From: Candidatus Micrarchaeota archaeon CG1_02_47_40 | GTDB taxonomy: Archaea; Micrarchaeota; Micrarchaeia; Anstonellales; CG1-02-47-40 | Assembly (NCBI GenBank): GCA_001871475.1 | Contig: MNVE01000009.1 | Coordinates: 85,120 to 149,119 of the forward strand | Reading direction: 5' to 3' | DNA: 64,000 nt | In this document: positions 1,199 through 52,461 of the stretch, in pieces | How the letters are laid out: each line of letters begins with the position of its first letter | Numbering within the stretch: position 1 is the stretch's first letter | Notes under the pieces: generated by a model | The model's input: the letters and a program-made list of their open reading frames with translations, nothing else | Databases searched by the model: none | What the model was told of the DNA's origin: nothing | Made by a program: the position numbers and the translations under genes

Positions 1199-2242
1199 GT
1201 GGTGGAATTTGCACTTTTTTCAAAATTAAGCGAAGTGTTCGGGGTTCCGGGAAGGGAGGACGGAATACAGGAGCTTATGCTTTCCGAGTTTAAGAAAATC
1301 GGCTTGAAGGCGGAAACGGACAGGATGGGGAATGTGATTGCGAAGGGAAAGGGCGCGAGGAAAAACCCGCTTGTTTTGGCTGCGCACATGGATGAGATAG
1401 GGATGATGGTGAAATACATTACGGAAAAGGGCTTCTTGAAATTCATAAAAGTTGGCGGGATTGACAACCGGACTCTCCTGAATCAGAGAGTGGTTGTGCA
1501 GACGAAAAACGGCAATATTTACGGGGTAATCGGCTCAAAGCCGCCCCACCTGATGAAGGACGAGGAGATGAAGAACGCGATCGACAAGAAAAACCTGTTC
1601 ATTGACATCGGCGCGAAGAATAGAAAGGACGCGGAAAAGCTGGGCGTGCAGGTCGGAGATGCGGTCTGTTTTGACATGAAGATGCAGAAGCTGGCGAATG
1701 GGATAGTTACGGGAAAGGCAATTGATGACAGGGTTGGCTGCTACATACTGCTGGAAGCTGCAAAAATGCTCAAGGATAAGAATGTCGTGTTCGTGGGGAC
1801 TGTGCAGGAGGAGGTTTCCACTTTCGGGAAGGGGGCGCAGGTGTCTGCATATTCCCTTGAGCCTTCGGCATTCATCGCGATAGACACTGCGATTGCAGGC
1901 GACCACCCGGAAGTTGGGGAGGAAGAAGCGCCTCTGAAATTAGGGGCAGGACCGGCAATTACGGCAGTAGAGGCATCTGGCAGGGGCAATGTTGCCGACA
2001 GGCTATTGCTGAAAGAGGTAATGGAAACCGCAAAAAAAGCGAAAGTGAAATACCAGCTTGAAGTGATAGAAGGGGGCGCGACTGATGCGGCTTCTGTTTA
2101 TAATGTGCGGGGAGGCATTCCTTCAGTCGCTTTATGCGTTCCCACGAGATACATACACTCAAATGTGCAGGTGTGCGCTTTGTCTGATGTGGAGAAGACG
2201 CTGGAATTGGTAGTGGAGATAGGGAAGAAGGGAGTAAGGTAG
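1199..2242 (+). CDS. M42 family (TET/FrvX-like) aminopeptidase
   Basis: LSEVFGVPGREDGIQELM...DRMGNVIAKGKG...VLAAHMDEIGMMVKYITEKGFLKF..GGID...GKAIDDRVGC...VQEEV matches the M42 metal-ligand pattern. GTG start. Confidence 0.85.
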   Translation: MVEFALFSKLSEVFGVPGREDGIQELMLSEFKKIGLKAETDRMGNVIAKGKGARKNPLVLAAHMDEIGMMVKYITEKGFLKFIKVGGIDNRTLLNQRVVVQTKNGNIYGVIGSKPPHLMKDEEMKNAIDKKNLFIDIGAKNRKDAEKLGVQVGDAVCFDMKMQKLANGIVTGKAIDDRVGCYILLEAAKMLKDKNVVFVGTVQEEVSTFGKGAQVSAYSLEPSAFIAIDTAIAGDHPEVGEEEAPLKLGAGPAITAVEASGRGNVADRLLLKEVMETAKKAKVKYQLEVIEGGATDAASVYNVRGGIPSVALCVPTRYIHSNVQVCALSDVEKTLELVVEIGKKGVR

Positions 2243-2996
2243 AAGGAGTTTTTACCCTGTTTGCGGAAGGAGAATCCCTTGGCTGGGAAATTCCGAACTC
2301 CTCAAATTTTTCCGGGCGGTTCCGAATGACGCATCTCATTCTTGAAAGCGCCTTTTCTATTATCGGTTTTATCCTCTCCTTTGGAAGGCTGTAGCGTTCT
2401 CCTATTTCCTCATAAGTCAGAGAATGTGTTTGCCCTATCCCAAAATATAATGTGACGATTTCCCTTTCTCTTTCTGAAAGCGCCAGCATCTTGCCAAGCT
2501 TGATTTGCACAACCTCTTTTCTCTCGCCAAGAAGGAGATTGAAATCAGGCGAATCGGTTTCGTAGGCAGGCACAGCGATTGCGTTTTTGCCTCCTGGATC
2601 GTTTCCTTGAAGTTCCGCTAATCCCTCTTGCATACTCTGTTTAATCCAATTCACCGCGTATGTTATGAATTTGGTTCCTGACGTTTCATCAAACCTTCGT
2701 GCGGCTTTTTGCAGCCCAAGGTAAGCCTGAGCAAACAAATCCCATACGAACTCTGGATTCCCTGAAGCAAACGCTTTTTTGTATGTTATGTCCGCTGCAA
2801 AGCGCAGGTTGTGCAGAACCAACGGCTGAAGATTGCCTCTCCTTGCGCTTATGGCTGCTTCTTTCTCCTGTTCGAGGGTTAGAATAGAGTATGTTTTATC
2901 TCTCATAAGCTTCCGTCGAAAGGTGAGAAAGCGATTGAGTTGCGTCTGCTCCCCTTTGCTAAATGCCGCAAAGTCAACGAGTTGCCCCTTCTTCAT
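1959..2996 (-). CDS. Bacterial-type sigma-70 family protein (regions 2 and 4); its 3' tail overlaps the convergent M42 gene by 284 nt
   Basis: Region 2: DLFAQAYLGLQKAARRFDETSGTKFITYAVNWIKQSM. Region 4: LSEREREIVTLYFGIGQTHSLTYEEIGERYSLPKERIKPIIEKALSRMR. The last ~95 aa are low-complexity and antisense to the M42 gene. Confidence 0.7.
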   Translation of the reverse strand: MKKGQLVDFAAFSKGEQTQLNRFLTFRRKLMRDKTYSILTLEQEKEAAISARRGNLQPLVLHNLRFAADITYKKAFASGNPEFVWDLFAQAYLGLQKAARRFDETSGTKFITYAVNWIKQSMQEGLAELQGNDPGGKNAIAVPAYETDSPDFNLLLGERKEVVQIKLGKMLALSEREREIVTLYFGIGQTHSLTYEEIGERYSLPKERIKPIIEKALSRMRCVIRNRPEKFEEFGISQPRDSPSANRVKTPSTLLPSSLSPLPIPASSPHQTKRTPAHLSVCISWERIKRLKECLPAHYKQKPHQSRPLLSLQAGISLSLFLRFPLPLSAIACRQHCPCQMPLLP

Positions 2997-3070
2997 GCTT
3001 TGTAGAGATTGAACGGATGTTGCCCTACCTTATATTAAGTGGGAAAAGATTAATAAAGAAGCTGGTTATT

Positions 3071-3275
3071 CGCCTAAACCTGCCCCGCTCTTCTTGAGAA
3101 TCTTCGCCTAACCTAAATCTTTTTCTGCATCTCCCTCTAACTTATATCTTCAGCATCTTCCCTAAATCGTCTTCAGCATTTCCCCCTAACCTAAATCTTC
3201 TTTTGCATCTCTTCCTAATCTAAATCTTCTTCACCATCTCTCCCAAACCTACAGCTTCTTCAGCATTTCCCCTAC
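3071..3275 (-). repeat. About 6 degenerate tandem copies (24-34 bp) of the giant gene's last ~27 nt, each retaining ATG..stop
   Basis: The gene ends GGG GAA ATG CTG AAG AAG CTG TAG (GEMLKKL*). Downstream minus-strand copies read MVKKI* (3220-3237), MQKKI* (3191-3208), MLKTI* (3162-3179), MLKI* (3142-3156) and MQKKI* (3113-3130). One further decayed copy lies at about 3071-3104. Confidence 0.8.
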
Positions 3276-6200
3276 CTTCTTCTCAAGGGATTCCAAGTAG
3301 ATTTCCACAACCTCAAAGCTTCCCTTATTCAGTTTGTCCCGCGCAAGCTTAAGCTCAAGCTCAACGTCAAACACGTCCACTTCCTTTGCCTTTAACTTTT
3401 CCATCCCTTCTATTACTTTCATTATCCTTTCATTATACAGATGGTATTTCTCAAGCGCCTTATCTGAAAGCCTAACAATAGAGTGCAAAAGCGGCCTAAA
3501 AAGCACGAAATACGGGTTCCCCCTGTTGAATTCGGCATTCTGCAGCATCCCCACACCGACAGGCGCCTTCACTATGTACTTTAGTATCTCCTCCCCGTAT
3601 TTCATCTTTATCCTGTTCAAATCCTCCTCGTATTTGGTGCGAAGCTGGACTTCGGTTGAGATGTTTGTTTTTATCTCCCCCACGAAATCGGAGAGCACCT
3701 GCGAAACAAGGAGCATCCCCACCCCCCATTTGCGGAATTCACGCACGGAGCGCTCTATGTTCTTGAAGCCCGCCCCCGTTCCTCCGAATTTCGGCAAGAG
3801 GCGGTGCACTTCATCGAATACAATCAGTAGGCGCAATTCCTTTGACTCCTCAAGGTTAAGCGCAAACACTTCTTCTATCGTATTTGCGACTATCGTCTCT
3901 ATGTCCACTGATTTGAAGTTGTTGAGCGCGAATATCGTTATCTCCCCGGGCTTCATGAGCTCCTTTATGTTTATCTTGCGGTTGGGGTCCTTTACTATGA
4001 ACACGTTGCCCGGAAACGCGCACGCGTCCGAGGCATTCATGCCAAAGTCCTTGTACAATGACAGCATCTCCTTTACGCTGTTTTTGCGCAAAAAGCCGGT
4101 CCACTGCGCTGTCGGGTCAAACACCACAACAGATATTTTCTTTTTGAGGACCTCTTCCACTATATCCTGCGCAGCAACGGTTTTTCCGCTTCCTGAAGCG
4201 CCTGCCACAAGCGCGTGCATTACCAATTTGTCAACCGGGAAGGCGGCGCGCACGTTTGTTTCAGCCACTTTTCCCAAAAAGGCAGCCCTCTCGTCAAATT
4301 TGGGCAGTTTTGAGAAGTCAATTTTCACAAGGAAGCGCTTCTTCTCCTTCTCCATCCTCTTCCACATCGCGTACCCCCCTGCCGCAAGCACGACTGCAAA
4401 GAGAAATACGAAAAGCGGAGTCAGGGAGCGGCGCACGTCTATGGTGGAAATGGAGGTTGCTTCTCTTGAAAGCCCGCTTGAAACCGGGTAAGTTGCAACC
4501 GCGCGCAGCACGTATTTCCCTTCAGGAGTGTCTGCAGGCACGTCCATTGTCTTTATGCTTGAGAGTGATGTTTCAATCGCAAGCGCCTCCTCAAGCTCCG
4601 CGACTATTTTCTCGTTCTCCTGCTGGATAAGCTGCACTTTGAGCTGTGCGTCCACCCTGCGCGCCTCCCCTAAATTATAAATGTTTGTTTCTATGCGGAT
4701 TTTCCCGCCGGGCTCAACCGTGCTGTCAATTGGCTGTATCTTCAGGTCAAGAAGCCTGTCCTTTAGCTGGAGCACGCGCAGGTTGAAGGGAACCTGTATC
4801 CTTCCGCCTGCTTCGTTTTCAAACTCTATTGAGCCGTAATAAACGCCCGGCTTTGTGTCGGCAGGCAGTGAAACAAAAAGAGCCACTTCGCTTTCCGCAT
4901 ACGGCTCAAGCGTTATCGAGCTCTGCTCGGAATAAACATAGGATTTTATGTTGCCTGCCGTTTGTATGCTGATTGTGGAGGTTTCGCCAAGCGTGTTCTT
5001 TATTGTGGTGGAGGTAGTTGTTTCCTCTCCAGGGTAGAGCTCAAAGTAGATGCTGTTTGTCATCGTCTCCATTCCCTCCGTGGAAATGTTCGCGCCGGAG
5101 CGCATCTTTTCCGATAGGTTCTCGTACATCTCCTGCAGAAGCGAGAGCTGTTGGTTGAATTCCTCCGAGTCTGGCTGCATTCCCTGCAGTTCGTCTATCT
5201 TGTCCTGTATCTCCTGCAGCTGCGCCTCGCTTGCGCCCTCCACGTTGGTGGTGGAATAAGAAGATGAGCCGCCGCTGCTTCCGCCGGTTGTCACGCTTAC
5301 CGTCTGTGTTGTCACCGGACAGTCCGCAGGGCAGTTTGCGCTTCCCTCCCCGTATGCGGAGTGGCAAACCCCGTCCCCGCAGATGTATTCCGCGGCAGCG
5401 TAGGCGGAGAAGCTGGAAATGTTCGCGGTGATTTTGTGGTTCAGCCTATCCACGGAAACCGAAGTCAGCCTTTCCCAGCCGGAAGTGCAAAGGCGGGTGG
5501 CAAAATCCCAGGTGGAGCACTTGTAAAGCCCCACATTTGACTCGGAGGCATAGGAGGTGCCGGAATAATCCATTGTGATGCTGCCGCCAGTGTAGTTGGT
5601 TGAAATGTTTGTCAGCGTTACTGCGGTCAGCGCCCCCCCTCCCACGTAATTCGGAGTCAGGCTGTCAATGCTGAAGAGGCTTGAAACGTTCTGCGACATG
5701 TTCACGCCGGTTAATGTGATGCTCTGCCCGAATGCCTTTATCTGCAAATTCACTATGTTCGTGGCATTCACGGACTGGTTGAAAATGCCGGAAGTGTTGA
5801 ACACGAACATCACGTTGGAGGCATTGTCAAGTATCCATATCTCCACCGTGGGCGTGCTGCCGTTTGCGCTTGTGAAGTTGCCGGCAATGTAAGCCCCCTG
5901 CATGACGTTGAAGGTGGAGGAGTTCGTCCCGTTCAAGCCGGAGGTGTCGTTTGCCCATGCACGAATGGTGTACATGCCATATTCGGCGTCGATTGTGGCA
6001 AAACTGTTGGTGTAATAGGGAGCAGAGTAGGTTAGAGTAAGATTGTCAACCGTTCCGTTGGGATGGGTAAGGTTGGCGGTTATGCCTGAAACACCGGCAT
6101 TGTCGCTTGGGAGAAGGGAAATTGCGACCACTGCGCCCTTGTAAGCTGACGCGGCGCTTATTATTATTGAGGGCGGCGTGGTATCGGTGTAGATGACTGC

Positions 6201-9200
6201 GCCGGCTTCGGTGTCCGCGCCGCCATAGCCTCCATACTGCGCCTCAACCACTATGCTGTTGTTAAGGGTAGTTATATCCGGGGCGAGGCATGAAATCAGC
6301 CATGCGGAGGTTGAATATGAATAGGATGGAGAAGTGCAGTCCGCTCCGCCTACTGCCGCACTCCAGGTTGCCCCGCTTGTCAGTTCGGCTCCCTCAAGAT
6401 AGGCATTTGCGCTTATGTTGAGGGTTGCGCCGGGAATTATTTCTGCTGCGGGCAAAGACGAGTTTGGAGAGGAAACCAGCACGGTCATGTTGATTACGCG
6501 CAGGGTTGCATTAAGGGTCAGCGAAGCGGGGGAGGCGGATGCGTTTGCAATGGTTATGCCGACAGTCATGTTCCCCGGAGCGGTCGCGTTTGAGTATATC
6601 CTTATGGTATGGGAGGTGGAGTTTTTGGGAATCTGGATATCTGTTTCATTTGCATACGCGCTTGTATCGTTTGTGGAGGAATTCAGGCGCAGGTTAACGT
6701 TCCCGTTGTTGTATATTCTTGCGTAGCCTATTGTGGTTTCGCCGGTGCCGACCGTTGCGTTGAAGAATGTCTGGTTTATGCTCCAGCTTGCGTTGGTCGG
6801 CACAGTAACCTGCAATTGCGCCGTCTTGTTTGAGATGCCGTCCCCGTATGCGATTATGTTCGCAAGGTATGTGCCTGGCGCATGGGCATAAGGTATGGAC
6901 ACGTTTATATTGACAGTTTCAATGCCTCCTTGTGCAATTGAGGCGATATATGCGGGCGCCATCGCCGTATCCGCCATCTCGCATATCGTGCCCGAGGAGC
7001 ACACGGCATAGATGTTAAGCGCGGTTCCGGTCCCGCTTGAGGTTATGGTGAAGTTTGTCCTTCCGGTCGCGTTGTGCTGGACGGACAGGGAGTCTATGCT
7101 GGACAGGGAGATGTCCGGCTGTCCGCTCGTCGTGACGGTTTCCCCAAGCATATACGCCGTTTCCCCGTCCGTGTCGGAGAACTGCGAAACGTTCGCATAC
7201 ACTCTGTCATAGACCTTGTCCACTACCGTGGTAAGCATGCCCCACGTGCCAGAGCAGGTTTTGGTTGAGAAATTCCATCCGGCGCACTTGTACATCTTTA
7301 TGTATTCTTCCGCTCCGGAAAGCTCTCCGCTGTCAAATGAGATGGATATTGCCGCGCCCCCGGTGAAGTTGGTGCGCACCCCTATGCCGTTCACCCCGTT
7401 CACCAGGCTGGATTCCCATTTGCCTATCCTGTCAAAGTCAAGCGAATCCGAGTAGGAGGAAAGCTCTATTTCCTGCAGGGTTATGTTCATGCTCATCTGC
7501 GAGGAGAAGACAACCGCGTCGTAGGTGCGCGAGTGTATGACGGCGCTGTATGCCCCGTTTGAATTTGTTGAGAAATTCTGCAGAACCTGCGAGGTGGCGG
7601 GGCGGTAGAGAGTGAAGCCCGCTGACACGGGCTGGCTGGATGAGTTCTTTATGTCGCCTGCGAAGCCTGCGTCCGTCCATATCTCAAAGTAGCCGGAGGA
7701 GGTGTTGGAATTGCCCTGCGCATCGGAAATCCAGTAATAAACATCATAATCGCCGACTGACAGCCCGCTCATGTTGAATTCATATGTGTAATTGTAGGAG
7801 TGATTTACGGTTATGTTCTGCGAAAGCACGTATGCCTTTACAGTGCTGACATTGACGTTGTCGCTTGCATTAATCTGGAAGAACGCGCTTGTCCCTGAAA
7901 TGTTTATCCTGCTGGCTAAAAACGCCGGCAGTGTGATGTCCAGGTAATGCAGGGAGGATTGCGTGGTGTTTGTTATGAGTATGTCCATTGTGCTGTAATT
8001 TGCGATAACTGTCAGGTTGTGCCACTGCCCGTCGTTTGCGCTTGGGGCGGTGCAGTTTATCTGCCAGAGGTTCTGCCCTGAAAAGTTCGCGTATGCGGAC
8101 ACGGGGCAGCTCGTTCCATTTACCTGCACGCTGAAGGTTGCGTTCTCGTTTACGTAGTCGTCCCCCGCAAGTATGGTGGCGTTTATGTATATCGTGTCTC
8201 CTGCGCTTATATTGACCTGCTTTACAGTTGAATTCGGACTTATGTTCATTGAGCCTACGAAAACCCGATAATCTATCGGAATTGTGTAGTTGAGGGTGGC
8301 GCCCTCGTGGGTTTCGTTTAATGTCAGATTGCCGTAGTAGCTTGCCGGCTCGCCTGGAAGGGAGTAAGTGATGTTCAGGGTGTAGTTGGTGCCTGCCAGG
8401 ACAGTCTGGCTTGCGTCTTCAAGAACGAATATGCCCGTAGCGTTCCCGCTTAAGTTGAAGAGGAATGCCAGATTTTCATTTCCGTTGTTGCTTATTGTCG
8501 TGGCAAGGGTTCCGGCTGCGTTGATTACGTTTGAGGTGTTTATACTGCTCCTGCTGACCGTCCAGTTGTAATCAGCCAAAACGTTTATTGTTGAGGTGAA
8601 CTGGTGGCTGGCGCCTTCCGTGGAAGTGGCATTGAGGTAGAGGTTGGGGTATGCCCCGGTCGCCTTGCCCGCGGAGGCAGTAAGCGTTACCGTAATCGGT
8701 TTTGCCTGCCCAATCCCAAGCGAGAACAGGGCGCTCTCGTTGAAGGCTACGCTGAATGCGGTGCACTGTGCGCCGGAGCAGGTCAGGTTTATTCCCGAAA
8801 CGTTGCTGATTCCGGTTGAATTCACTATAAGCGTGAAGTTTGAACTGCTTCCCTGCGAGATGTTCGCCGCCGATGGGAACTGCAGGAGCAATTCGGGATT
8901 CCCCTGCACGCTGACAGTTATGTCAGCAGTATAATTGGTAAAGTTGCTCCTGTCGGGATTTGTCCATCTGATATATGGAGTCACATAATATGTGCCGGGC
9001 TCCGTGCCTGCCGGGATTGTGATTGTTATATTCGCATATTGCTTTGAGTTGTTCGTTATGTTTGTGAAATTGCATATTGTGGAGCCCCAGCTGGAATTTG
9101 AGGGAAGTCCGTATCCGGTCGCGTTTATCGCGGTTCCATAGCCGGTGTTGTTTGCGGATATTTCAAAGGAGAAAGTTTTCGGGGAGGATTGGCTCATTCC

Positions 9201-12200
9201 TGAAATTACTGCGGTGGTGATGTTTGAGCCGGCTCTCATGCTCGTGTTCCCATAGACTATGAAGAGGATGCTGCCATTTCCGTATTTGTTTCCGGTGTCA
9301 GGCACGTGGACTGAAATGTTGTAGGCGCCCCCCCATTGAGGCGTGTAGAGGCAGTAGAAGCTGTTTAGGAGCCCTACGCGAGTGGCTGAAACTTTTTCTG
9401 TCGCAGAGTTCAGGGTGAAGTTGCAGTGGACGTTATTGTAGTCTATCTGTGTCTGGTCGTCGGAAGCGGAGAAATTCACGCGGATTTGGATGTTGGCGTC
9501 TGTTACGTTTATCGGGGCGTAGTTGGAAGCGTTAGTTATGTTTATCTGCGGCGCGACTACTGGAGGCTGGTCTTCCACCACAAGATACATTGTCGTGTAG
9601 TTTGTTGTTGGAGAGGCGCTTGTGTTTGTGAGAGTGATGTTCAGAGTCCAGGAGCCGGTTATAAGCGAGCCGATGAAATTGGGCGTCAGGTTGTAAGATA
9701 CTCCTGCCGGCACCTGTATTGCTGATGGGTTGCTCTCCGGGTCCACCGCTGTCCCGACAAAAGAGCCTGTGTAGCCGATTGTGAAATTCAGCTCCACGTT
9801 CCCGGTGTTGTTTATGCGCGCTGTTCCAAGCGGGGCAGTGGATTGAGTCTGGTCTATTGCGCTCGTATTCGTCTGATTGAAGGGGGAAAGGTTCCATGTC
9901 AGGGACGCGGGCACGCTTATGCTTATGTTTATGCGCACGTCGTTCCCGTTTGAGATGTTCAGGTCAAAATGCCCGGTGTAATTGCCCGGCGCGTAATGCG
10001 CAGGGACGGTTATGTTCAGCGAGAGGTTTGTGCGCTCCCCCACCCCGAGGCTTGCGATTGCGGCGGGCGCGAAAACAAACCAGCCCGTGAGAGCGGTTTC
10101 CTCAATGTAGGTTATTTCGGTGTCAACTATTTCCGCGTTTCCAGTGGAGTTCAGCGAGATGTTGAATCTGTCTGTCTCCGAGTGGTTTATGCTCGTGTTC
10201 AGCAGTTCAATGGTAGTCAGGATGGGATTGCCGGTTATGGATATGGGAAGGGCTTTTTCAGCCAAATTTCCTATTGTCAGGTCGTTGTTGGTGAATCTTC
10301 CGTTGAAGTAGATGTAGTAGGTCGCCTGGGGGGTAAGCTCATCCACGGTTATGTTGAAGGAAACAACGCAGGTTCCGTATGAGTAATTTATGGATTCGGT
10401 GCAGTTCTCGGTGCTTGTGACGGCGTTTATGTATTGCGAGTAGGTGTTGGTGGAGTTTGAAACGTTTGCCAGATGGGCTTTTCCGCTGCCGGTGTCGTTC
10501 AGGGTTATATTGTATATGAAATAGTAGCCCGGGGAGAGGTCGGTAATTGAGATTGGCGGGAGCGTTGAGCCGGACAAGACCATTGAAACCGTTGTAGTCG
10601 CCACGGTGCTCATCTCAAACCTTGAAGAGTTTGAGTGCCTTGCCGTATCGTTTGCGTATATTGTTATGTTGTAGTTGCCCGCGCTTGGAGCTGTTAAAGA
10701 GCAGGAGTGGGAGTTGCCGGCTCCCGCGTCAGCAGTGTAATTCACACCGTTCTGCTCGCAGAGCACGCTTGAGAGCGCGATGTTTTCGCCTATGTCAAAT
10801 GTCACGGTGTAGGAAGAGCTGGCAGAAGTGTAATTGTAAGCATTCAGCCCGCTTGTGGAAACGTTCTCCACGCGCGGGGTGTCGTTGTCCACAGTAATGT
10901 TCGTTATATTCGTAAGCACAATTCCCTGTATGGAAACGTTCATGTAAAGAGAGTAGTTGCCAGGTGCGATATTCGTCAGGTTGGTGGTGTTTGTATAGGT
11001 TCCTTCAGAAGGATTTGCAAGATTAAGTGAAAATACGGAACAGCCGGAAGGCGCTGTCCTTGCGCCTATGCACGCAAAAATCGCGTCAGCCGGCTCATTG
11101 CCAAGCCCGGCATTGTCAGTGGCAAGGGTTATTGTCGTGCCCATCCTCTCCGCGGAATCGTAGCTGCTCCTGTTTGTCGCAAGGGAGGGATAATACTCAA
11201 AGAGAGTAATGTTCTTTGTGGCGTTGGCTGTCCTTGCCGCCTCGGTTATGTTCACGCTTATGTTGTATTCTCCCGACGCATAGCGGAAACTGCTGAAAGT
11301 CCAGGAAACGTTTGTGGCGTTGAAGGTGTAATTATACCTGCCTGTTGAGTTTGTCTGCGGGGGACCGGCAGGCGCCATGTTGGAATCTGCCACCTGCGTT
11401 CCGTTGAAGAATATGGCGATTGCCTTGTTCAGGATGAGGCTGTCGCCGAAGGTCGCTGTTCCATTTACAGAAACATTCGCTCCTTTCACCACGAAAGAAG
11501 GCACCGCCGTAATGGTTATCACAGCTCCGCAGGTGCTGCCGGCATAAACCGCATTTCCGGTTCCGGAATCAGAAACAGTTGAGCCGGAACTGCCGCAGCC
11601 GAAGTTTTCGTAGGTGAATTCGGTCAGGTTTATTGGATTGTTTATTGTGTTGTTTTCAATTTGGGACAGGGAGGTGTTCGCGGTTTCGGATGTGCCGTTT
11701 AAGTAGAATGAGTTTATTGTCGCACTTACCGCGTTTCCGACCAAAAAGACGCTTTTCGTGTTCCGCATGTAGAAGCCGTATGCGCCGCTTATGGTGTTGT
11801 TTGTGAAGTTTGAATAGTTGGAGGAAAATATGTAGGTGGAATTGCCGGAGGTTGAGACAGCTGAAAGGTTTTCAACGAAGGAGTATGGAGAGGCAAAAAG
11901 CGCAAGAGCCGAGCCTGTGCCGGACGAGGCACTGCCTCCTGCAATCACACTGCCCGAACTTTGATTCAGGAGAATCCCTGTTCCGCTTGTGGAGGAGCTG
12001 ATGCTGTCTGCTATTGAGTTGTTTGAGCTTCCGTTTATGTATATTCCGGAGCCGGAAACGGAAGTCGCGTTTGAATTCGCTACGAGATTCAGGTTTTCAG
12101 GGCGGAGGTAGCTTATTGAAACGTCATTAAGCACCGGGCTGGAGGATATGTTTGACGTGTTGAAGCTGAACTTGTACTGGAAATACCTGTTTTGGGAAAG

Positions 12201-15200
12201 GTTCAGGAAGTTGTAGGTGGCATTTTCATAGCCTTCTGTCCAGGATTCGCCGGAGCATTCAGCGTCGTCGCAGGAGCGGGCGGACATATTTAGGCGATAG
12301 GCTCCCCTCTGGTACATTGTGACTATTTCGGTCGGCGTCAGGGCGCGGTTGAATGTCGCAAGCTCGTCTATCCTGCCGTTGAAAAATACGCCTGCATGGT
12401 AGGTGCCGCTGCCGCTGTTTCTGCCAGGGCATGCTCCGACAAGCTGGATTATAACTGGCCTTGGGTCAAAATTTGTCATCCATCCTACGTAGATTCCATT
12501 GACATATGCATAATAATTAGTGACCCTGCGCAGGCATATATGCGACCATTTATTTACGGGCACGTAACTATTATACTGTATCTCGGGAGTAGCAGCACCG
12601 TTTGTCACATACGCGGAGCCCTTGTCAAATCGCAGAGCCCAACTGCCTTCTTGCCAGTTTGACGCTCCGTAGATGGTCTGGGCGGCATTGTCGGAGGTAG
12701 GGTATATCCAGGCGCAGATTGTGAAGGCTGCGGTCGCCGAAATCGGACCGCCGGAAGTGGTAACCCGGACATAATCATTTCCGTCAAAACTGCCGGCATA
12801 GCTGCCGAATTTGGATGAGTTTGTGAATGTGGCGCCAAAAGCAGTCGGGTTGTACCCGGAACTGCTGGTATCCGTCCAGGCGTTGTTCGTGTGAATCAGC
12901 AGGGTATTTCCGCCCATGTTTGCCCCGCCCTGGACGGTTTCAACCTGCCTGTTGTCCGGCAGTTCTTCCCCATAAGGGAATGCCTCGCTCCAGTTTGCGG
13001 ATGTCCAGTTCACGGCTGTTGAGCCGTCAAATATCCTTGAGGTGTAGGTTCCGTCGCTTGTGTACTGGGAGCCGGCAGGGGTCAGGGTTATGTTGCCGCT
13101 TTGGCTGGCTATGGAAACGCCGGCAGGCGTTCCAAAGGCAAAGTCTGCCTGGCTGGTTTCGGAGAAGGAGTTTGCCTGCCCGTTGATTTCAATCGCAGGC
13201 GAGCCGACGGCGTTTGCATATGAAACGTTTGCCAGATACGTGCTGAATAGGCGGACGCCGGCTCCTGCGGTTGAAGTCGCATTTGAGTTTTCCAGCAGGC
13301 TGTAAGCCCCGCCGAGGAGGACTGCCGTGCCGTTTGCATTTGAAACCGCAGAAGAGTTTATTATGAGGCTGCCGGAATTGAGGGGAGCTGACTCGGAAAT
13401 GAACATCCCGTACCCGTTTGAAATCCCATCCCCATACCTTGAGGTGAAGGCGCTTGTGTTGAGCACTGTAGAGCTGCCTGCCGTAGAGTAGATGCCGGTT
13501 GAGTAATTCTCTATTCTGCAATTCAATATAGTGGTGTTGAAGGAATCTGAATAAATCCCGTAAGTGTTTGTGGTGTTTGTGCCGTTAAGGATGAAACTGC
13601 TCCCGCAGTCTATGGTGTTGTTTCCCAGGTTGTTTGTCAGGTTGTAGGCTGATTTCGTGTTTGAGGAGGCATAGGTGCTGTTGAAGAGGTTGGAGGAGGA
13701 AGAGCTTGCGATAATTGCGTCTTGCGAATTGGAGATGGCTGATGAGCCGATGATTTGAGTGTAGTTTGAGCCAGTGGAGAGGCAGATGCCATAGCCGGAG
13801 GTTGAGGTGAAGTTTGAGTTTGAGATTGTGTTGTAGTTTGCACTGGCGCGCAGCAGTATTCCTTTTCCGTTTGCGTCCGTTTCATCTCCGGACCTCGTAG
13901 TGAATGCGGTTGTGTCGGTAATGGTTCCGTTGTCTGCGCCGTTTAAGTATATTCCGGTTGAGAAATTTTCTATTCTGCAGTTTTGTATGGTAGTGTTGAA
14001 TGAGATTGAGTAAATCCCGTAAGTGTCCGTGGCGTTGTTTCCGTTTAACATGTATCCCTGGCAGTCAAGGGTTATGTTTTCTGCCGTGATGTTTATGCAC
14101 CCTAATGAGGCGGAGGTTGAGAAGGACTCGTTAAGGACGTAGCTCCTTCCGCTTATGTTAAGATTCGTGCAGCTGCGTATGTTTGTGGAAACGAACAGCA
14201 CGGAAGTTGTGTTCCTTCCAACCACTCCGTACGCGCCGCCTATGTTGGTGGTTTCATTGAAGTAGGTGGAATTCACTATCAGGGTGTAATTGCCTGGTTC
14301 GGTTGGCACTGTGAAGGAGGAATTGTAATGCCCTGTGTCGTTTGTTGTCCCGCTAACGGCAAGGGTTTCATACCCGTTCCAATCCTTCAGGTAAACGTCA
14401 TACGCATAGCCTGACAGATTCGTCCTGTTCATGTAGTTTGAATACCTGTTCGTGAAGTTGAATTTTCCGTAAACGAAAACCTCGTCGCCGGCGAACATGG
14501 CGTTTGTGTTGAGGGAGATTGAGGCGTTCAGGAGAGGGATTGACTGGATGGGCGCGGAGTCCGAGGAGGCGGAGCCGTTCCACTTGGTTTTTGTGCTTGC
14601 CTGATATGGGAGCGCGCCGCCTATTGAGGCGTCCGCGTAATTGTCCGCATTCGTATCCAGTATGTTGGGCCAGTATGAGTTGATGTCGTCGTAGTAGTTT
14701 CCCCGGTCTACAGCCCCGACGGTTTCCTCAAAGTCGTTTCCCGAAGTCGCATGGGTGTTTACATAATATGTGCTTGCGTTAAGCAGGTAGTTGCCGTATA
14801 TGTAATTGCTGTTTGCCTCCAGCCGGATGCTCGTGTTCCCGCCTTCTATCGTGTTGTTGATGATTGAGTTGTATAATGCGGAGTTGATGAGGCGGATGCC
14901 GGTGGCGCTGGAATTTTTCAGTATGATGTGGTTGTTGGTTATGTTTGTGTACCTGTAGTAGTAAAGGTAGACTGCCGGATTTGCCGAATACGAGGTTATC
15001 TTGTTATTGGAGAAAACGTCATGGGTTATTATGCTGCCCGTATCGTGGGCAGAGGAGATATACAGCGCGGAGCTTTCGTTTGCGGTAAAGTTGTTGTAGG
15101 AGACGTTGCTGTCAAAGAACATGGAGGTATGCATGCCGTAGCCGGTTGCGCGGATGGTGTTGGATTTTATAGTGTGGAAGGACGCATTTGAGTTGCCGCT

Positions 15201-16967
15201 GTAATTGGAGTAGAAGGCGGTTCCGTTTGAGTAGATATTATTGCCGGTGATGTTGTTGCTGCTTGTTAGATTGTTGAAGTATATTGCGTAGCCGCTGTTG
15301 GTGTTCTTGTAGAAGGTATTGTCCCTGATGGTGCTGTAATTTGCCCCGTGGAAATGCGCCCCGTAGTAAAAGCCGCTTATGATGCAGTTTCGGATGGTGG
15401 TGTTTGTACCATTTGAGTAGACAGCTGACGCGCCTGGAGTTGTTTCGCCGGTGTTGGTGATGGTGTGCCCCTGGCAGTCTAATGTAATATTCTCTCCTGT
15501 CACGTTGAAGCAGGTGCCTCCGCTGTTTGGGTCGGCGTTGAGGTAGAAGATTTTATCCCGAACGTCGGGGAAGTTTGCAAGCGCCTGGCAGCCGGAGATT
15601 ATTTCCACCGCCTCACCTGAATTGTATCTTGCGCCGATGGGACCCCAGTCATAATAGCCTCCCGATAGGGAATAGGGATAGTCTCCTCCTATGTCTCCGT
15701 AGTTGTCAGCAGGAGAATAGTCATAGATTTCCTTTGTCAGTATGTTGTCGTAGTAGTTTCCTTGCGCTGTTCCTCCTGCTGTTGTGTTGAAGGTGTTTGA
15801 CGCACCGCCAAGATTGTATATGTAAGTGGAGGCGCGGTAAAGGTAATTGTGGAAGATAGAGTTGTTGGTTGAATCAGATGAAGGTATGTAGATGCCATAG
15901 GTTGAGGCATTTATAGTTGTATTTCGTATTATAGTATTGTTTGAACGGGTGGTGATGAGGATGCCGGCGCTGGAGGTGGAGGTGAATGTTGAGTTTATGA
16001 TTGAATTGTTTGAGCTGGAGTGGACGACGATGCCGGCGCTGATGGTGGAGGTGCCGGTTGAGTTTATGATTTGATTGTAATTGGAATTGGAGATGAGATA
16101 GATAGCGGGATAAGTAGAAGTGCCGGTTGAGTTTATGATTGAGTTGTTTGAGCTGGAGGTGAGGTAAATGCCGTAGCTGGTGTTGGAGGTGCCGGTTGAG
16201 TTTATGATTGAGTTGTTTGAGCTGGAGGAGAGGCTGATGCCGAGACCGGTGTTTGAGATGCCCATTAGGTTTATTATGTTGTTGTTTGAACTGGAGGAGA
16301 GTCCGATGCCGGGGCTTATGCGGGCTGAGCCATTGGAGTTTATGATTGAGTTGTTTGAGCTGAAGGTGAGGAAGATGCCACTGCTGGTGTTAGAGGTTCC
16401 TGTTGAGCCTGTAATGTTGTTGTTTGAGCTTGAAAGGAGGTTGATGCCCTGTTGAGAGTTTGAACTGCCTGTTGAGTTTATGATTTGGATGTAGTTTGCA
16501 TCTTTTAGGCTGATGGCGGAGGAACCGGAGGCTATATCTGCAGAAACATTTTGTATACGCCCGTTGTCGGCATAATAAAAATAGATGGCATAGTAAAACT
16601 CATTTATTTTTATATTTTTCACAGTCGTGCCGGAAACTGTTGAATAAACGCCGTAGCTTGAAGCCGCGCCTGTTCCATTTACATCATGCCCCTGCCCATC
16701 CAGCACCACGTTCACAGCAGTTACGGTAAAGCAGGTGGTGCTTCTGCCGGTTATATCTGCCGTAAGCGTGTAAGTTCCCGCCGTGTCCAGCGTCTGGCAG
16801 GTGGAGATAGGTCCCGGAGTGCTTGCGAAAAGGGCGGGAGAGAGCAAGAGGAATAGGAAAATCAGCGACTTCCATTTTCTCCCGTTTAGCATGAGAAGAA
16901 ATGAGTTTAAGATATTTATAAGGCTTATTATAAAAAAGTCCGAAGACTTTTTTAGACTTGACTGCAA
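3249..16967 (-). CDS. Giant (4572 aa by ORF) surface protein: signal peptide, beta-helix/LamG/Ig-like sequon-rich ectodomain, one TM, cytoplasmic P-loop ATPase. Probable real start is Met26 at 16892.
   Basis: Uninterrupted 13.7-kb ORF. KWKSLIFLFLLLSPALFAS is a signal-like segment. 22-23 aa periodic IINSTGTSN-type repeats (PbH1-like). Very dense N-x-S/T sequons. C-terminal TM plus Walker A/B. A TATA-like box lies ~28 nt upstream of the ATG at 16892. Confidence 0.9.
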   Translation of the reverse strand: MQSSLKKSSDFFIISLINILNSFLLMLNGRKWKSLIFLFLLLSPALFASTPGPISTCQTLDTAGTYTLTADITGRSTTCFTVTAVNVVLDGQGHDVNGTGAASSYGVYSTVSGTTVKNIKINEFYYAIYFYYADNGRIQNVSADIASGSSAISLKDANYIQIINSTGSSNSQQGINLLSSSNNNITGSTGTSNTSSGIFLTFSSNNSIINSNGSARISPGIGLSSSSNNNIINLMGISNTGLGISLSSSSNNSIINSTGTSNTSYGIYLTSSSNNSIINSTGTSTYPAIYLISNSNYNQIINSTGTSTISAGIVVHSSSNNSIINSTFTSTSSAGILITTRSNNTIIRNTTINASTYGIYIPSSDSTNNSIFHNYLYRASTYIYNLGGASNTFNTTAGGTAQGNYYDNILTKEIYDYSPADNYGDIGGDYPYSLSGGYYDWGPIGARYNSGEAVEIISGCQALANFPDVRDKIFYLNADPNSGGTCFNVTGENITLDCQGHTITNTGETTPGASAVYSNGTNTTIRNCIISGFYYGAHFHGANYSTIRDNTFYKNTNSGYAIYFNNLTSSNNITGNNIYSNGTAFYSNYSGNSNASFHTIKSNTIRATGYGMHTSMFFDSNVSYNNFTANESSALYISSAHDTGSIITHDVFSNNKITSYSANPAVYLYYYRYTNITNNHIILKNSSATGIRLINSALYNSIINNTIEGGNTSIRLEANSNYIYGNYLLNASTYYVNTHATSGNDFEETVGAVDRGNYYDDINSYWPNILDTNADNYADASIGGALPYQASTKTKWNGSASSDSAPIQSIPLLNASISLNTNAMFAGDEVFVYGKFNFTNRYSNYMNRTNLSGYAYDVYLKDWNGYETLAVSGTTNDTGHYNSSFTVPTEPGNYTLIVNSTYFNETTNIGGAYGVVGRNTTSVLFVSTNIRSCTNLNISGRSYVLNESFSTSASLGCINITAENITLDCQGYMLNGNNATDTYGIYSISFNTTIQNCRIENFSTGIYLNGADNGTITDTTAFTTRSGDETDANGKGILLRASANYNTISNSNFTSTSGYGICLSTGSNYTQIIGSSAISNSQDAIIASSSSSNLFNSTYASSNTKSAYNLTNNLGNNTIDCGSSFILNGTNTTNTYGIYSDSFNTTILNCRIENYSTGIYSTAGSSTVLNTSAFTSRYGDGISNGYGMFISESAPLNSGSLIINSSAVSNANGTAVLLGGAYSLLENSNATSTAGAGVRLFSTYLANVSYANAVGSPAIEINGQANSFSETSQADFAFGTPAGVSIASQSGNITLTPAGSQYTSDGTYTSRIFDGSTAVNWTSANWSEAFPYGEELPDNRQVETVQGGANMGGNTLLIHTNNAWTDTSSSGYNPTAFGATFTNSSKFGSYAGSFDGNDYVRVTTSGGPISATAAFTICAWIYPTSDNAAQTIYGASNWQEGSWALRFDKGSAYVTNGAATPEIQYNSYVPVNKWSHICLRRVTNYYAYVNGIYVGWMTNFDPRPVIIQLVGACPGRNSGSGTYHAGVFFNGRIDELATFNRALTPTEIVTMYQRGAYRLNMSARSCDDAECSGESWTEGYENATYNFLNLSQNRYFQYKFSFNTSNISSSPVLNDVSISYLRPENLNLVANSNATSVSGSGIYINGSSNNSIADSISSSTSGTGILLNQSSGSVIAGGSASSGTGSALALFASPYSFVENLSAVSTSGNSTYIFSSNYSNFTNNTISGAYGFYMRNTKSVFLVGNAVSATINSFYLNGTSETANTSLSQIENNTINNPINLTEFTYENFGCGSSGSTVSDSGTGNAVYAGSTCGAVITITAVPSFVVKGANVSVNGTATFGDSLILNKAIAIFFNGTQVADSNMAPAGPPQTNSTGRYNYTFNATNVSWTFSSFRYASGEYNISVNITEAARTANATKNITLFEYYPSLATNRSSYDSAERMGTTITLATDNAGLGNEPADAIFACIGARTAPSGCSVFSLNLANPSEGTYTNTTNLTNIAPGNYSLYMNVSIQGIVLTNITNITVDNDTPRVENVSTSGLNAYNYTSASSSYTVTFDIGENIALSSVLCEQNGVNYTADAGAGNSHSCSLTAPSAGNYNITIYANDTARHSNSSRFEMSTVATTTVSMVLSGSTLPPISITDLSPGYYFIYNITLNDTGSGKAHLANVSNSTNTYSQYINAVTSTENCTESINYSYGTCVVSFNITVDELTPQATYYIYFNGRFTNNDLTIGNLAEKALPISITGNPILTTIELLNTSINHSETDRFNISLNSTGNAEIVDTEITYIEETALTGWFVFAPAAIASLGVGERTNLSLNITVPAHYAPGNYTGHFDLNISNGNDVRINISISVPASLTWNLSPFNQTNTSAIDQTQSTAPLGTARINNTGNVELNFTIGYTGSFVGTAVDPESNPSAIQVPAGVSYNLTPNFIGSLITGSWTLNITLTNTSASPTTNYTTMYLVVEDQPPVVAPQINITNASNYAPINVTDANIQIRVNFSASDDQTQIDYNNVHCNFTLNSATEKVSATRVGLLNSFYCLYTPQWGGAYNISVHVPDTGNKYGNGSILFIVYGNTSMRAGSNITTAVISGMSQSSPKTFSFEISANNTGYGTAINATGYGLPSNSSWGSTICNFTNITNNSKQYANITITIPAGTEPGTYYVTPYIRWTNPDRSNFTNYTADITVSVQGNPELLLQFPSAANISQGSSSNFTLIVNSTGISNVSGINLTCSGAQCTAFSVAFNESALFSLGIGQAKPITVTLTASAGKATGAYPNLYLNATSTEGASHQFTSTINVLADYNWTVSRSSINTSNVINAAGTLATTISNNGNENLAFLFNLSGNATGIFVLEDASQTVLAGTNYTLNITYSLPGEPASYYGNLTLNETHEGATLNYTIPIDYRVFVGSMNISPNSTVKQVNISAGDTIYINATILAGDDYVNENATFSVQVNGTSCPVSAYANFSGQNLWQINCTAPSANDGQWHNLTVIANYSTMDILITNTTQSSLHYLDITLPAFLASRINISGTSAFFQINASDNVNVSTVKAYVLSQNITVNHSYNYTYEFNMSGLSVGDYDVYYWISDAQGNSNTSSGYFEIWTDAGFAGDIKNSSSQPVSAGFTLYRPATSQVLQNFSTNSNGAYSAVIHSRTYDAVVFSSQMSMNITLQEIELSSYSDSLDFDRIGKWESSLVNGVNGIGVRTNFTGGAAISISFDSGELSGAEEYIKMYKCAGWNFSTKTCSGTWGMLTTVVDKVYDRVYANVSQFSDTDGETAYMLGETVTTSGQPDISLSSIDSLSVQHNATGRTNFTITSSGTGTALNIYAVCSSGTICEMADTAMAPAYIASIAQGGIETVNINVSIPYAHAPGTYLANIIAYGDGISNKTAQLQVTVPTNASWSINQTFFNATVGTGETTIGYARIYNNGNVNLRLNSSTNDTSAYANETDIQIPKNSTSHTIRIYSNATAPGNMTVGITIANASASPASLTLNATLRVINMTVLVSSPNSSLPAAEIIPGATLNISANAYLEGAELTSGATWSAAVGGADCTSPSYSYSTSAWLISCLAPDITTLNNSIVVEAQYGGYGGADTEAGAVIYTDTTPPSIIISAASAYKGAVVAISLLPSDNAGVSGITANLTHPNGTVDNLTLTYSAPYYTNSFATIDAEYGMYTIRAWANDTSGLNGTNSSTFNVMQGAYIAGNFTSANGSTPTVEIWILDNASNVMFVFNTSGIFNQSVNATNIVNLQIKAFGQSITLTGVNMSQNVSSLFSIDSLTPNYVGGGALTAVTLTNISTNYTGGSITMDYSGTSYASESNVGLYKCSTWDFATRLCTSGWERLTSVSVDRLNHKITANISSFSAYAAAEYICGDGVCHSAYGEGSANCPADCPVTTQTVSVTTGGSSGGSSSYSTTNVEGASEAQLQEIQDKIDELQGMQPDSEEFNQQLSLLQEMYENLSEKMRSGANISTEGMETMTNSIYFELYPGEETTTSTTIKNTLGETSTISIQTAGNIKSYVYSEQSSITLEPYAESEVALFVSLPADTKPGVYYGSIEFENEAGGRIQVPFNLRVLQLKDRLLDLKIQPIDSTVEPGGKIRIETNIYNLGEARRVDAQLKVQLIQQENEKIVAELEEALAIETSLSSIKTMDVPADTPEGKYVLRAVATYPVSSGLSREATSISTIDVRRSLTPLFVFLFAVVLAAGGYAMWKRMEKEKKRFLVKIDFSKLPKFDERAAFLGKVAETNVRAAFPVDKLVMHALVAGASGSGKTVAAQDIVEEVLKKKISVVVFDPTAQWTGFLRKNSVKEMLSLYKDFGMNASDACAFPGNVFIVKDPNRKINIKELMKPGEITIFALNNFKSVDIETIVANTIEEVFALNLEESKELRLLIVFDEVHRLLPKFGGTGAGFKNIERSVREFRKWGVGMLLVSQVLSDFVGEIKTNISTEVQLRTKYEEDLNRIKMKYGEEILKYIVKAPVGVGMLQNAEFNRGNPYFVLFRPLLHSIVRLSDKALEKYHLYNERIMKVIEGMEKLKAKEVDVFDVELELKLARDKLNKGSFEVVEIYLESLEKKVGEMLKKL
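3252..4361 (-). other. C-terminal cytoplasmic P-loop NTPase domain of the giant protein (HerA/FtsK/VirB4-like, DUF87-like)
   Basis: Walker A VAGASGSGKT at nt 4179-4202 (checked on DNA). Walker B LLIVFDEVH at about nt 3804-3830. Followed by FRKWGVGMLLVSQ and a coiled-coil tail. Confidence 0.7.
4362..4424 (-). other. Single predicted transmembrane helix separating the ectodomain from the ATPase domain
   Basis: LTPLFVFLFAVVLAAGGYAMW followed by the positively charged KRMEKEKKRF (positive-inside rule puts the ATPase in the cytoplasm). Confidence 0.7.
12300..12810 (-). other. LamG / concanavalin-like jelly-roll domain inside the giant protein (approximate bounds)
   Basis: GSFDGNDYVRVTTSGGPISATAAFTICAWIYPTS...WSHICLRRV...FFNGRIDELATFNRALTPTEIVTMYQRG is a typical Laminin_G_3 pattern. 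Confidence 0.6.
15770..16790 (-). other. First parallel beta-helix (PbH1-like) repeat block of the giant protein (approximate); the DNA shows 66-69 nt tandem periodicity
   Basis: Repeated ...SSSNNSIINSTGTSNTS.GI.L... units. The DNA unit ggtgccggttgagtttatgattgagttgtttgagctggag recurs between about 15950 and 16460. Confidence 0.65.
16912..16925 (-). promoter_or_regulatory. TATA-box-like element for the giant gene
   Basis: The minus strand reads ATAATAAGCCTTATAAATATCTTAAACTCATTTCTTCTC-ATG(16892). CTTATAAATA lies ~28 nt upstream of the ATG, suggesting a short or absent leader. Confidence 0.4.
16932..16953 (-). terminator. Symmetric A6/T6-flanked hairpin, possibly a terminator for the upstream ATPase gene
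   Basis: AAAAAAGTC-CGAA-GACTTTTTT: a 9-bp stem with an oligo-T run on either strand. Confidence 0.4.
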
Positions 16968-52321: not shown

Positions 52322-52461
52322 GCCCCCATAGTTTAGCGGATAGAATGGAGGCCTCCGGAGCCTCTGACCGGAGTTCGAAACCTAAGGGGGGTTCCACCCC
52401 CCTTAAGGTCTCAACCCCCCCCAAAGAACGTGGGTTGGTACTGAAAATCTCCGTGGGGGCG
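52322..52461 (+). tRNA. tRNA-Arg (CCG) with a ~68-nt intron in the T-loop
   Basis: GCCCCCA-TA-GTTT-AGCGGATA-GAAT-G-GAGGC-CTCCGGA-GCCTC-TGAC-CGGAG-TTCGAAA-[intron, about 52381-52448]-CTCCG-TGGGGGC-G, then TTTTT. The mature length is 72 nt. Confidence 0.8.

Follow-up and report, generated by a model that had tools for sequence, protein, structure and literature searches.

We analysed a 64,000-nucleotide (nt) stretch of contig MNVE01000009.1 (assembly GCA_001871475.1) from Candidatus Micrarchaeota archaeon CG1_02_47_40, and we refer to this whole stretch as the window. Its minus strand carries a single giant gene: an open reading frame (ORF) runs uninterrupted over 3249..16967 and, from its first ATG at 16892, encodes a protein of 4,547 amino acids (aa). 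The identical product has been called on two public contigs, one of which is a 173-kb groundwater-metagenome contig. The order of its parts, including a single transmembrane (TM) helix, is as follows.

3249..16892, minus strand: whole gene for a giant membrane-anchored protein, in all likelihood of the SPEARE type; 4,547 codons plus stop (ORF list and translation)
16821..16892, minus strand: N-terminal signal peptide, aa 1-24, MLNGRKWKSLIFLFLLLSPALFAS; hydrophobic over aa 9-29 after R/K, of the Sec type by inspection
10743..16820, minus strand: variable distal ectodomain, aa 25-2050; Pfam domains, few or no relatives by BLASTP
5313..10742, minus strand: conserved stalk, aa ~2051-3860; colinear BLASTP matches to giants of other DPANN phyla
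4425..5312, minus strand: membrane-proximal module, aa 3861-4156; Cys-rich knot, short coiled coil and two beta-sandwich domains
4362..4424, minus strand: single TM helix LTPLFVFLFAVVLAAGGYAMW, aa 4157-4177; highest hydropathy peak of the protein (2.05), followed by KRMEKEKKRF
3252..4361, minus strand: predicted cytoplasmic domain, aa 4178-4547, a HerA-clade RecA-like ATPase with a C-terminal helical bundle (Pfam, PDB, AlphaFold2 and Foldseek)

Topology, ectodomain and SPEARE membership

A hydropathy scan of all 4,547 aa found, besides the TM helix, only the signal peptide and one weak internal stretch. The 4,132-aa ectodomain is rich in N-glycosylation sequons: 240 N-x-S/T sites precede the TM helix (5.8 per 100 aa) against 108 expected from composition, whereas the 370-aa tail holds two (0.54 per 100 aa). 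The combined lysine and glutamate content likewise differs, at 4.7% in the ectodomain versus 22% in the tail. Archaeal N-glycosylation occurs on the outer side of the cell. Because the signal peptide, the positive-inside rule and the sequon contrast (240 outside, two inside) agree, the predicted topology is N-out/C-in, which places the ATPase within the cell. A preliminary description, made from the DNA letters alone, had already noted the basic KRMEKEKKRF run after the TM helix as positive-inside and placed the domain in the cytoplasm, and both points stand. An antisense ORF of 385 aa (3334..4491, plus strand) lies opposite the ATPase domain; it is almost certainly a shadow ORF of the minus-strand frame, which is strongly conserved.

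The distal ectodomain matched the Pfam families Beta_helix (1.3e-33) and NosD (1.5e-29), indicating right-handed beta-helix/NosD repeats, together with Laminin_G_3 (1.8e-17; aa 1370-1523, nt 12324-12785) and NPCBM_assoc, while no protease, nuclease or toxin-like Pfam family was found in the 4,547 aa. For comparison we surveyed the GTDB species-representative genomes and kept 80 loci with 10-kb flanks, many giants being cut by the flank. Among the loci examined, the distal ~2,000 aa have almost no relatives by BLASTP, and the beta-helix and laminin-G head, predicted from its domains to be adhesive, varies between lineages. The stalk (aa ~2050-3860) aligned at 25-30% identity over 1,100-1,800 aa to 20-32 family ORFs from several phyla, among them the Nanohaloarchaeota loci L034 (5e-124) and L020. 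The membrane-proximal module reaches furthest, with 72 to 85 of 86 family ORFs aligning to it, including forms of ~700 aa, and aa 3900-4156 common to nearly every member; it was also seen in the family proteins P0013, P0067 and others.

This architecture has been described before. Hamm et al. (2019) defined the nanohaloarchaeal SPEARE proteins as sequences of up to 8,553 aa, mainly extracytoplasmic, with a TM segment near the C-terminus and laminin-G in the ectodomain of all members; the most conserved part was cytoplasmic and was read as a type III restriction enzyme domain (PMC6642349). The same study supplied proteomic evidence for Nha. antarcticus only, reported SPEARE-like sequences in Woese-, Aenigm- and Micrarchaeota and Altiarchaeales, and listed RLG14629.1, encoded on a hydrothermal-sediment contig of 9 kb, among the matches to SPEARE (PMC6642349). 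In a re-analysis that also took in two giants (9,409 and 8,880 aa), Reva et al. (2023) did not find the nuclease or protease domains and described an Ig-rich ectodomain, a TM segment, a cytosolic VirB4/TraG-like ATPase and a coiled coil, for which they proposed a type-IV-secretion-like 'straw' (PMC10266531). Relatives in Micrarchaeota, Woesearchaeota, Aenigmarchaeota and Altiarchaeales are noted or implied by both papers (PMC6642349, PMC10266531).

Our assignment rests on RLG14629.1 rather than on Nha. antarcticus NAR1_1133 itself. Locus L020 (9,424 bp) encodes exactly RLG14629.1, and the window protein matches it in two parts: the tail at 56.3% identity over tail residues 45-417, and the ectodomain, over aa 2575-3837, at 25% identity across 1,343 aa (E 4e-75), colinearly. 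The order of parts is shared as well, namely a signal peptide, a giant adhesive ectodomain with laminin-G, one TM helix near the C-terminus, a P-loop ATPase and a helical or coiled-coil end. We therefore hold with high confidence that the protein is a Micrarchaeota member of a DPANN-wide SPEARE-type family. Several features nevertheless set it apart from the published members: its host is a groundwater Micrarchaeota (Anstonellales-like) rather than a halophile, its distal ~2,000 aa consist of beta-helix/NosD repeats, it is encoded without an adjacent second ATPase or coiled-coil partner gene, and its ATPase lies nearest to HerA, whereas VirB4/TraG was published. The protease and nuclease domains of the original description were not found in it by Pfam; we did not count this as disqualifying, because Reva et al. 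dispute these domains in the founding members. The fusion of a giant ectodomain to an ATPase, which the preliminary description had regarded as unusual, is thus the defining architecture of a published family, and the ATPase superfamily was published with it. New here are this instance and the HerA placement.

Motifs, fold and class of the cytoplasmic ATPase

The preliminary description had assigned the tail to the ASCE translocase-type NTPases of the HerA/FtsK/VirB4 group on the strength of its motifs, and these motifs proved to be present and conserved. Residue numbers such as G104 or D230 below follow a tail numbering that begins before the TM helix, extends to residue 417 and is distinct from the full-length aa numbering.

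4179..4202, minus strand: Walker A GASGSGKT, aa 4231-4238; G104, G106 and K107 invariant in 34 homologs
3804..3830, minus strand: Walker B LLIVFDEVH, aa 4355-4363; D230 in at least 90% of homologs, E231, H233 and R234 invariant
3699..3743, minus strand: REFRKWGVGMLLVSQ, aa 4384-4398; counterpart of the HerA 'REGRKxGxG...SQ' motif
3255..3464, minus strand: C-terminal three-helix region, tail residues 347-416; DSSP helices 347-372, 378-392 and 396-416, all with a predicted local distance difference test score (pLDDT) above 90

The third motif quoted at first, FRKWGVGMLLVSQ, ends at nt 3699. The counterpart of REFRKWGVGMLLVSQ in S. solfataricus HerA (4d2i) is REGRKFGVGLTIVSQ, and in 8wiv it is KEGRKYGIGMMLVSQ; the RExRKWG motif lines up with REGRKFG in HerA. 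Residues R254, E255, R257, K258, W259, G260, S267 and Q268 are invariant in the 34 homologs, and by analogy with HerA this segment holds the putative arginine finger and sensor glutamine. Across the same homologs, the Walker A glycine and lysine, the Walker B glutamate, RExRK and SQ do not vary. From these residues and the predicted topology, the catalytic site appears complete, of HerA type and located inside the cell.

Profile and structure searches converge on the same clade. In Pfam the tail scored best with DUF87, which is the central domain of HerA (39.9 bits; threshold 23.2), and with HerA_C (34.1 bits; threshold 22). Searched singly against PDB sequences, the tail matched HerA down to 1e-8; a 34-sequence family profile matched eight distinct HerA sequences at 5e-12 to 2e-8, followed by DotL (0.028), FtsK (0.034) and TrwB (0.34). 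AlphaFold2, run as a single chain on the 34-homolog alignment, gave a model with a mean pLDDT of 90.2 and a predicted template modelling (pTM) score of 0.85, in which a long TM and juxtamembrane helix (tail residues 23-54) is followed by a short beta-hairpin, a RecA-like core and three C-terminal helices; the C-terminal 'coiled coil' of the preliminary description corresponds to these last ~70 residues. Foldseek ranked HerA structures in positions 1 to 29 against the PDB, from 7.6e-12 (4d2i, S. solfataricus) to 3e-9, with the coupling protein TcpA at rank 30 and the STIV packaging ATPase B204 at rank 42.

The likeness to HerA, known from the archaeal HerA-NurA end-resection translocase and from bacterial SIR2-HerA and DUF4297-HerA defence complexes, extends over the RecA-like core, Walker A, the hhhhDE strand, the REGRKxG arginine-finger motif and SQ. 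An FDP motif after strand 2 and the invariant aspartate in SQxxSD of the tail also correspond to HerA-clade signatures, insofar as these are quoted from Iyer et al. (2004). The tail differs from HerA in carrying a TM helix and an ectodomain in place of the HAS barrel: in the model, the TM helix is separated from the Walker A strand by only ~55 residues, which contain a beta-hairpin, and the alignments to HerA start at HerA residues ~105-135. Identity to HerA is only 13-19%. Taken together, motifs, profiles and the predicted fold identify the domain as a translocase-type NTPase of the HerA/FtsK/VirB4 group with HerA clearly the nearest clade, which refines the published VirB4/TraG-like annotation. 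None of the unrelated P-loop families scored better: the matches to ResIII, DEAD and kinases are weaker than DUF87 and confined to the P-loop or to the stretch from Walker A to Walker B.

The ResIII match (4.4e-6, 27.1 bits) is the basis of the original SPEARE reading, which took the cytoplasmic part for a module of restriction-endonuclease type that breaks down imported DNA (Hamm et al. 2019, PMC6642349). ResIII, however, is a helicase/ATPase subunit and not a nuclease, and here it reaches no further than from Walker A to Walker B. Pfam detected no nuclease family in the whole protein, and the model comprises a HerA-like RecA fold and helices without any additional domain. This reading is at odds with the domain content and highly improbable; we reject it, as Reva et al. 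concluded likewise (PMC10266531).

Another reading is a membrane-anchored anti-phage HerA of the SIR2-HerA, DUF4297-HerA or MADS mad8 type. PADLOC models for mad8 (2e-15) and HerA (2.4e-15) match the tail, and upstream of the giant gene lie two divergent AAA_14 and DUF4143 ATPases (17085-18368, minus strand; 18636-20102, plus strand), both matching the PADLOC candidate defence family PDC-S01 at ~1e-54. The PADLOC matches to the tail are nevertheless partial and due to the common HerA fold. A NurA, SIR2 or DUF4297 partner was not found in the window, adjacent to the gene in the 80 loci or among the conserved neighbours of 82 loci. Defence HerAs are moreover soluble and have a HAS barrel, whereas the SPEARE-type family is near-universal in DPANN and fused to adhesin domains. 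This reading, too, conflicts with the domain content; we consider it extremely doubtful and have rejected it.

The match list bears as well on the 'straw' of Reva et al. (2023), in which Ig-like domains bind the host and a VirB4/TraG-like ATPase secretes effector proteins (PMC10266531). The ATPase does share its superfamily with VirB4 and the coupling proteins, TcpA stands directly after the HerA structures in the Foldseek ranking, and two coupling-type Pfam models exceed their cut-offs, although only over a P-loop region of ~45 aa: TrwB_AAD_bind (28.4 bits against 20.5; tail residues 88-135, profile positions 9-56 of 387) and T4SS-DNA_transf (23.9 bits). By contrast, AAA_10 stays below its cut-off (22.9 bits against 27.5), as does the VirB4 equivalog TIGR00929 (14.8 against 643); the CagE_TrbE_VirB N-domain (PF03135) has no Pfam match in the protein, and no VirB4 structure occurs among the 29 profile matches to the PDB (E<=10) or in the Foldseek top 50. 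The FtsK_SpoIIIE motor model likewise falls short (15.4 bits against 24, over 21 residues around the P-loop).

Among NCBIfam models the top match was CedD (1.7e-9), which is partial and far below its cut-off (36.9 bits against 600), and the equivalogs for HerA (24-29 bits against 800-970) and TraC (26.4 against 567) were also far below theirs; these matches, like that to VirB4, were partial too.

A protein family spread across DPANN archaea

Hundreds of proteins share 45-59% identity with the tail, and their labels are Woese-, Pace-, Aenigm-, Micr-, Nano- or Altiarchaeota. At least 555 loci were confirmed in the GTDB species-representative genomes, and a profile search of 1.84 billion cluster representatives (50% identity clusters) returned 448 proteins at E<=1e-30. 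Of the best 150 of these 448, 55 are at least 2,000 aa long, with a maximum of 6,253 aa; the ATPase lies in the C-terminal part in all 150, and at or near the C-terminus in most giants. The labels of the 80 kept loci are all DPANN or unclassified archaea except for seven loci assigned to 'uncultured Methanosarcinales archaeon' (L021, L027, L035, L042, L044, L077 and L081). These come from third-party assemblies and their labels may be wrong; if correct, they would carry the family beyond DPANN.

The ORFs of the 80 loci fall into size classes of ~424, ~680-790, ~1,250-1,350 and ~1,450-1,700 aa, with a class of giants that spans 2,300 to more than 4,000 aa. In full-length members of ~680-730 aa, a signal peptide is followed by two beta-sandwich domains, one TM helix, the ATPase and a helical end; L015, at 424 aa, consists of the TM helix and the ATPase with essentially no ectodomain. 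In a neighbour-joining tree of the ATPase domain the order tracks these size classes, and the window protein groups with the Micrarchaeota giants L004-L010. Tandem family paralogs occur in L002, L004, L069, L070 and L072. In L002 (1-10181) the start of the 726-aa gene lies within one called at 3,995 aa, and in L004 (2639-21369) ~1 kb separates a gene of 2,921 aa from one of at least 2,983 aa. Such tandem paralogs indicate repeated duplication with resizing of the ectodomain.

The preliminary description had raised the possibility that homologs encode the ATPase separately beside giant adhesins, which was not borne out: ectodomain and ATPase are fused in 87 of the 87 family genes examined, from 424 aa to more than 4,000 aa. 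This constancy speaks for an ATPase that works on its own ectodomain, by exporting it, assembling oligomers, tensioning or retracting a fibre, or signalling inside-out upon host binding. The co-variation of the membrane-proximal module and TM helix with the ATPase across the family points in the same direction, as does the agreement between the tree order and ectodomain size. Export, which was among the options first put forward, is the least likely of them: the Sec signal peptide is sufficient for it and makes self-export by the ATPase unnecessary, and ectodomain-free members such as L015 retain the ATPase. To our knowledge, moreover, the best-characterised HerA-FtsK relatives thread nucleic acid through their ring, and none passes force through a single TM helix. 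An ATPase dedicated to its own ectodomain therefore seems rather unlikely to us.

Gene neighbourhoods and the host lineage

In the relatives the commonest neighbour encodes a cytoplasmic coiled-coil protein that measures ~300-600 aa and lacks a Walker A motif; this gene lies on the same strand at most 1.5 kb downstream in 49 of the 77 family genes with enough flank and in 16 of 22 giants. The protein carries the motifs ERF..ISEQIGE(L/I)R, VQPE and RHADRVE, and its only Pfam match is a sub-threshold ATG16-like one. Examples are the following genes.

L045, 12986-14071: coiled-coil gene
L020, 6384-7424: coiled-coil gene
L007, 11510-13111: coiled-coil gene

Together with the helical bundle at the C-terminus of the giant protein itself, this partner would fit a structural platform, as expected if the ATPase served its own ectodomain. 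Rarer neighbours are an upstream secreted protein of ~1,050 aa, an RHH protein, a 192-aa tail-anchored protein and a KaiC-like ATPase. Profiles of the five commonest neighbour families (the coiled-coil protein of ~360 aa, the ~1,050-aa secreted protein, the RHH protein, the 192-aa TM protein and the KaiC-like ATPase) had no match in the window at E<=10.

These neighbourhoods complete the evidence on the type-IV-secretion-like 'straw'. An adjacent VirB4 gene has been cited in its favour for two nanohaloarchaea (PMC10266531). In the nanohaloarchaeal loci L020, L024 and L034, however, the gene directly downstream is the coiled-coil protein without Walker A, and a profile search (E<=1) of all ORFs in the window region and in 82 loci found no second HerA/VirB4-like gene except tandem family paralogs. 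A tblastn search of the window for a second family copy or HerA/VirB4 paralog returned only the tail itself. Genes for VirB4, a VirB6/CedA-type channel or pilins were not found as conserved neighbours within 10 kb in the 82 loci, nor in the 64-kb window. We accordingly judge secretion of effectors through such a straw to be unlikely.

The remainder of the window is consistent with an archaeal host. Its glycyl-tRNA synthetase is 72-73% identical to the best non-self matches, of which the named one is from Anstonellales, and most further named ones are Micrarchaeota; other genes are archaeal housekeeping genes, including Nop, a family B DNA polymerase, aIF5B with an intein, and a Hef-like helicase. 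The intein of the aIF5B/IF-2 gene (35021-38380, plus strand) contains a LAGLIDADG homing-endonuclease domain (Intein_splicing 4e-17, LAGLIDADG_3 2.9e-21). A tRNA-Arg(CCG) at 52322-52412 (plus strand) was called at 91 nt, over the standard length, which suggests an archaeal intron, and an Rfam scan at the gathering threshold returned no family in the window. Downstream of the giant gene, after a gap of 252 nt, lies an ORF (1959-2996, minus strand) resembling a bacterial-type sigma-70 factor (Sigma70_r4 2.9e-13, Sigma70_r2 7.4e-7) on a contig that is otherwise archaeal. It is missing from the public gene call. Because its 3' third overlaps an M42 peptidase gene encoded on the opposite strand, any genuine product is probably ~230 aa long. 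A 450-aa protein (31381-32733, minus strand) matches PG_binding_1 (1.2e-10), which is odd for an archaeon and possibly relevant to bacterial contact.

A possible role at the contact with the host

Membrane-anchored relatives offer the closest precedents for what the protein may do. CedD is a TM protein with a HerA/VirB4-like ATPase and is required for DNA import in Saccharolobus (bioRxiv 10.1101/2024.09.27.615246). Like the SPEARE-type tail, CedB, CedD and bacterial VirB4 are HerA/VirB4-like ATPases anchored in the membrane; their anchor is an N-terminal TM segment, and they work at cell-cell contacts. The Ced ATPases differ in having a cytoplasmic VirB4-like N-domain and no large ectodomain, and they work with a polytopic CedA/CedE channel and CedA1 pili, whereas partners of the CedA, CedE or CedA1 type were not found near SPEARE-type genes (82 loci, 10-kb flanks). 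FtsK/SpoIIIE and the coupling proteins TrwB/VirD4, TcpA and DotL share an N-terminal membrane anchor, a C-terminal ring translocase of the same superfamily and DNA pumping or substrate coupling at the membrane; they have two to five TM helices and no ectodomain, and their profile E-values are only 0.03-0.4.

The sequence shows a protein exported through its N-terminal signal peptide, with ~4,130 aa outside the cell, one TM helix as an anchor and the HerA-clade ATPase in the cytoplasm. On these analogies we propose the following model. The ATPase may form a ring at the inner face of the membrane, as its solved relatives do, and such a ring would gather several ectodomains into a single fibre where the symbiont touches the host cell; there the variable head would bind host surfaces. 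ATP hydrolysis could then move a polymer across the symbiont membrane at the contact site. DNA would be the most likely polymer, since it is what HerA and FtsK act on, as do CedB and CedD, the archaeal importers anchored in the membrane. DPANN archaea are also generally held to lack nucleotide synthesis.

Host adhesion coupled to ATP-driven polymer movement is a tentative proposal, which we consider possible without regarding it as probable. As a compromise figure, the joint explanation of identity, architecture and translocation stands slightly better than even. Several points weigh against translocation. The ATPase activity, oligomeric state and substrate are predicted for the whole family, by analogy with its relatives, and the curated HerA, CedD, VirB4 and TraC models score so far under their cut-offs that function is not transferable by orthology. 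With one TM helix per protomer, and hence at most six helices per ring, and no adjacent polytopic VirB6/CedA channel in the window or the 80 loci, the membrane conduit is unaccounted for. The commonest neighbour is a coiled-coil protein that lacks a P-loop, which hints at scaffolding or mechanical work more than at transport.

A bolder version of translocation would be a self-contained, DPANN-specific uptake machine rather than a type IV secretion system. In it, a HerA-like ring pump welded to a host-binding fibre would work with its coiled-coil partner to supply nucleotide-auxotrophic symbionts with DNA, or another polymer, drawn from the host; the ancestral importer would survive in the 424-aa members, and the giants would be host-targeting elaborations of it. 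We offer this as speculation with a low chance of being correct. A cryo-electron tomography paper on one cultivated member of the Micrarchaeota does not mention the family and attributes the intercellular nanotubes seen there to the host (PMC11329633).

In summary, the window adds a complete and intact Micrarchaeota example to the SPEARE-type family. Physical contact with host cells is essential to DPANN archaea, and this family is a prime candidate for the contact machinery because it is among the few DPANN-wide, lineage-specific gene sets that join a host-binding surface to an energy-consuming motor. The HerA-like motor, the cross-phylum stalk of ~1,800 aa, the size classes and the frequent coiled-coil partner should sharpen experiments on cultivated nanohaloarchaea and Micrarchaeota.

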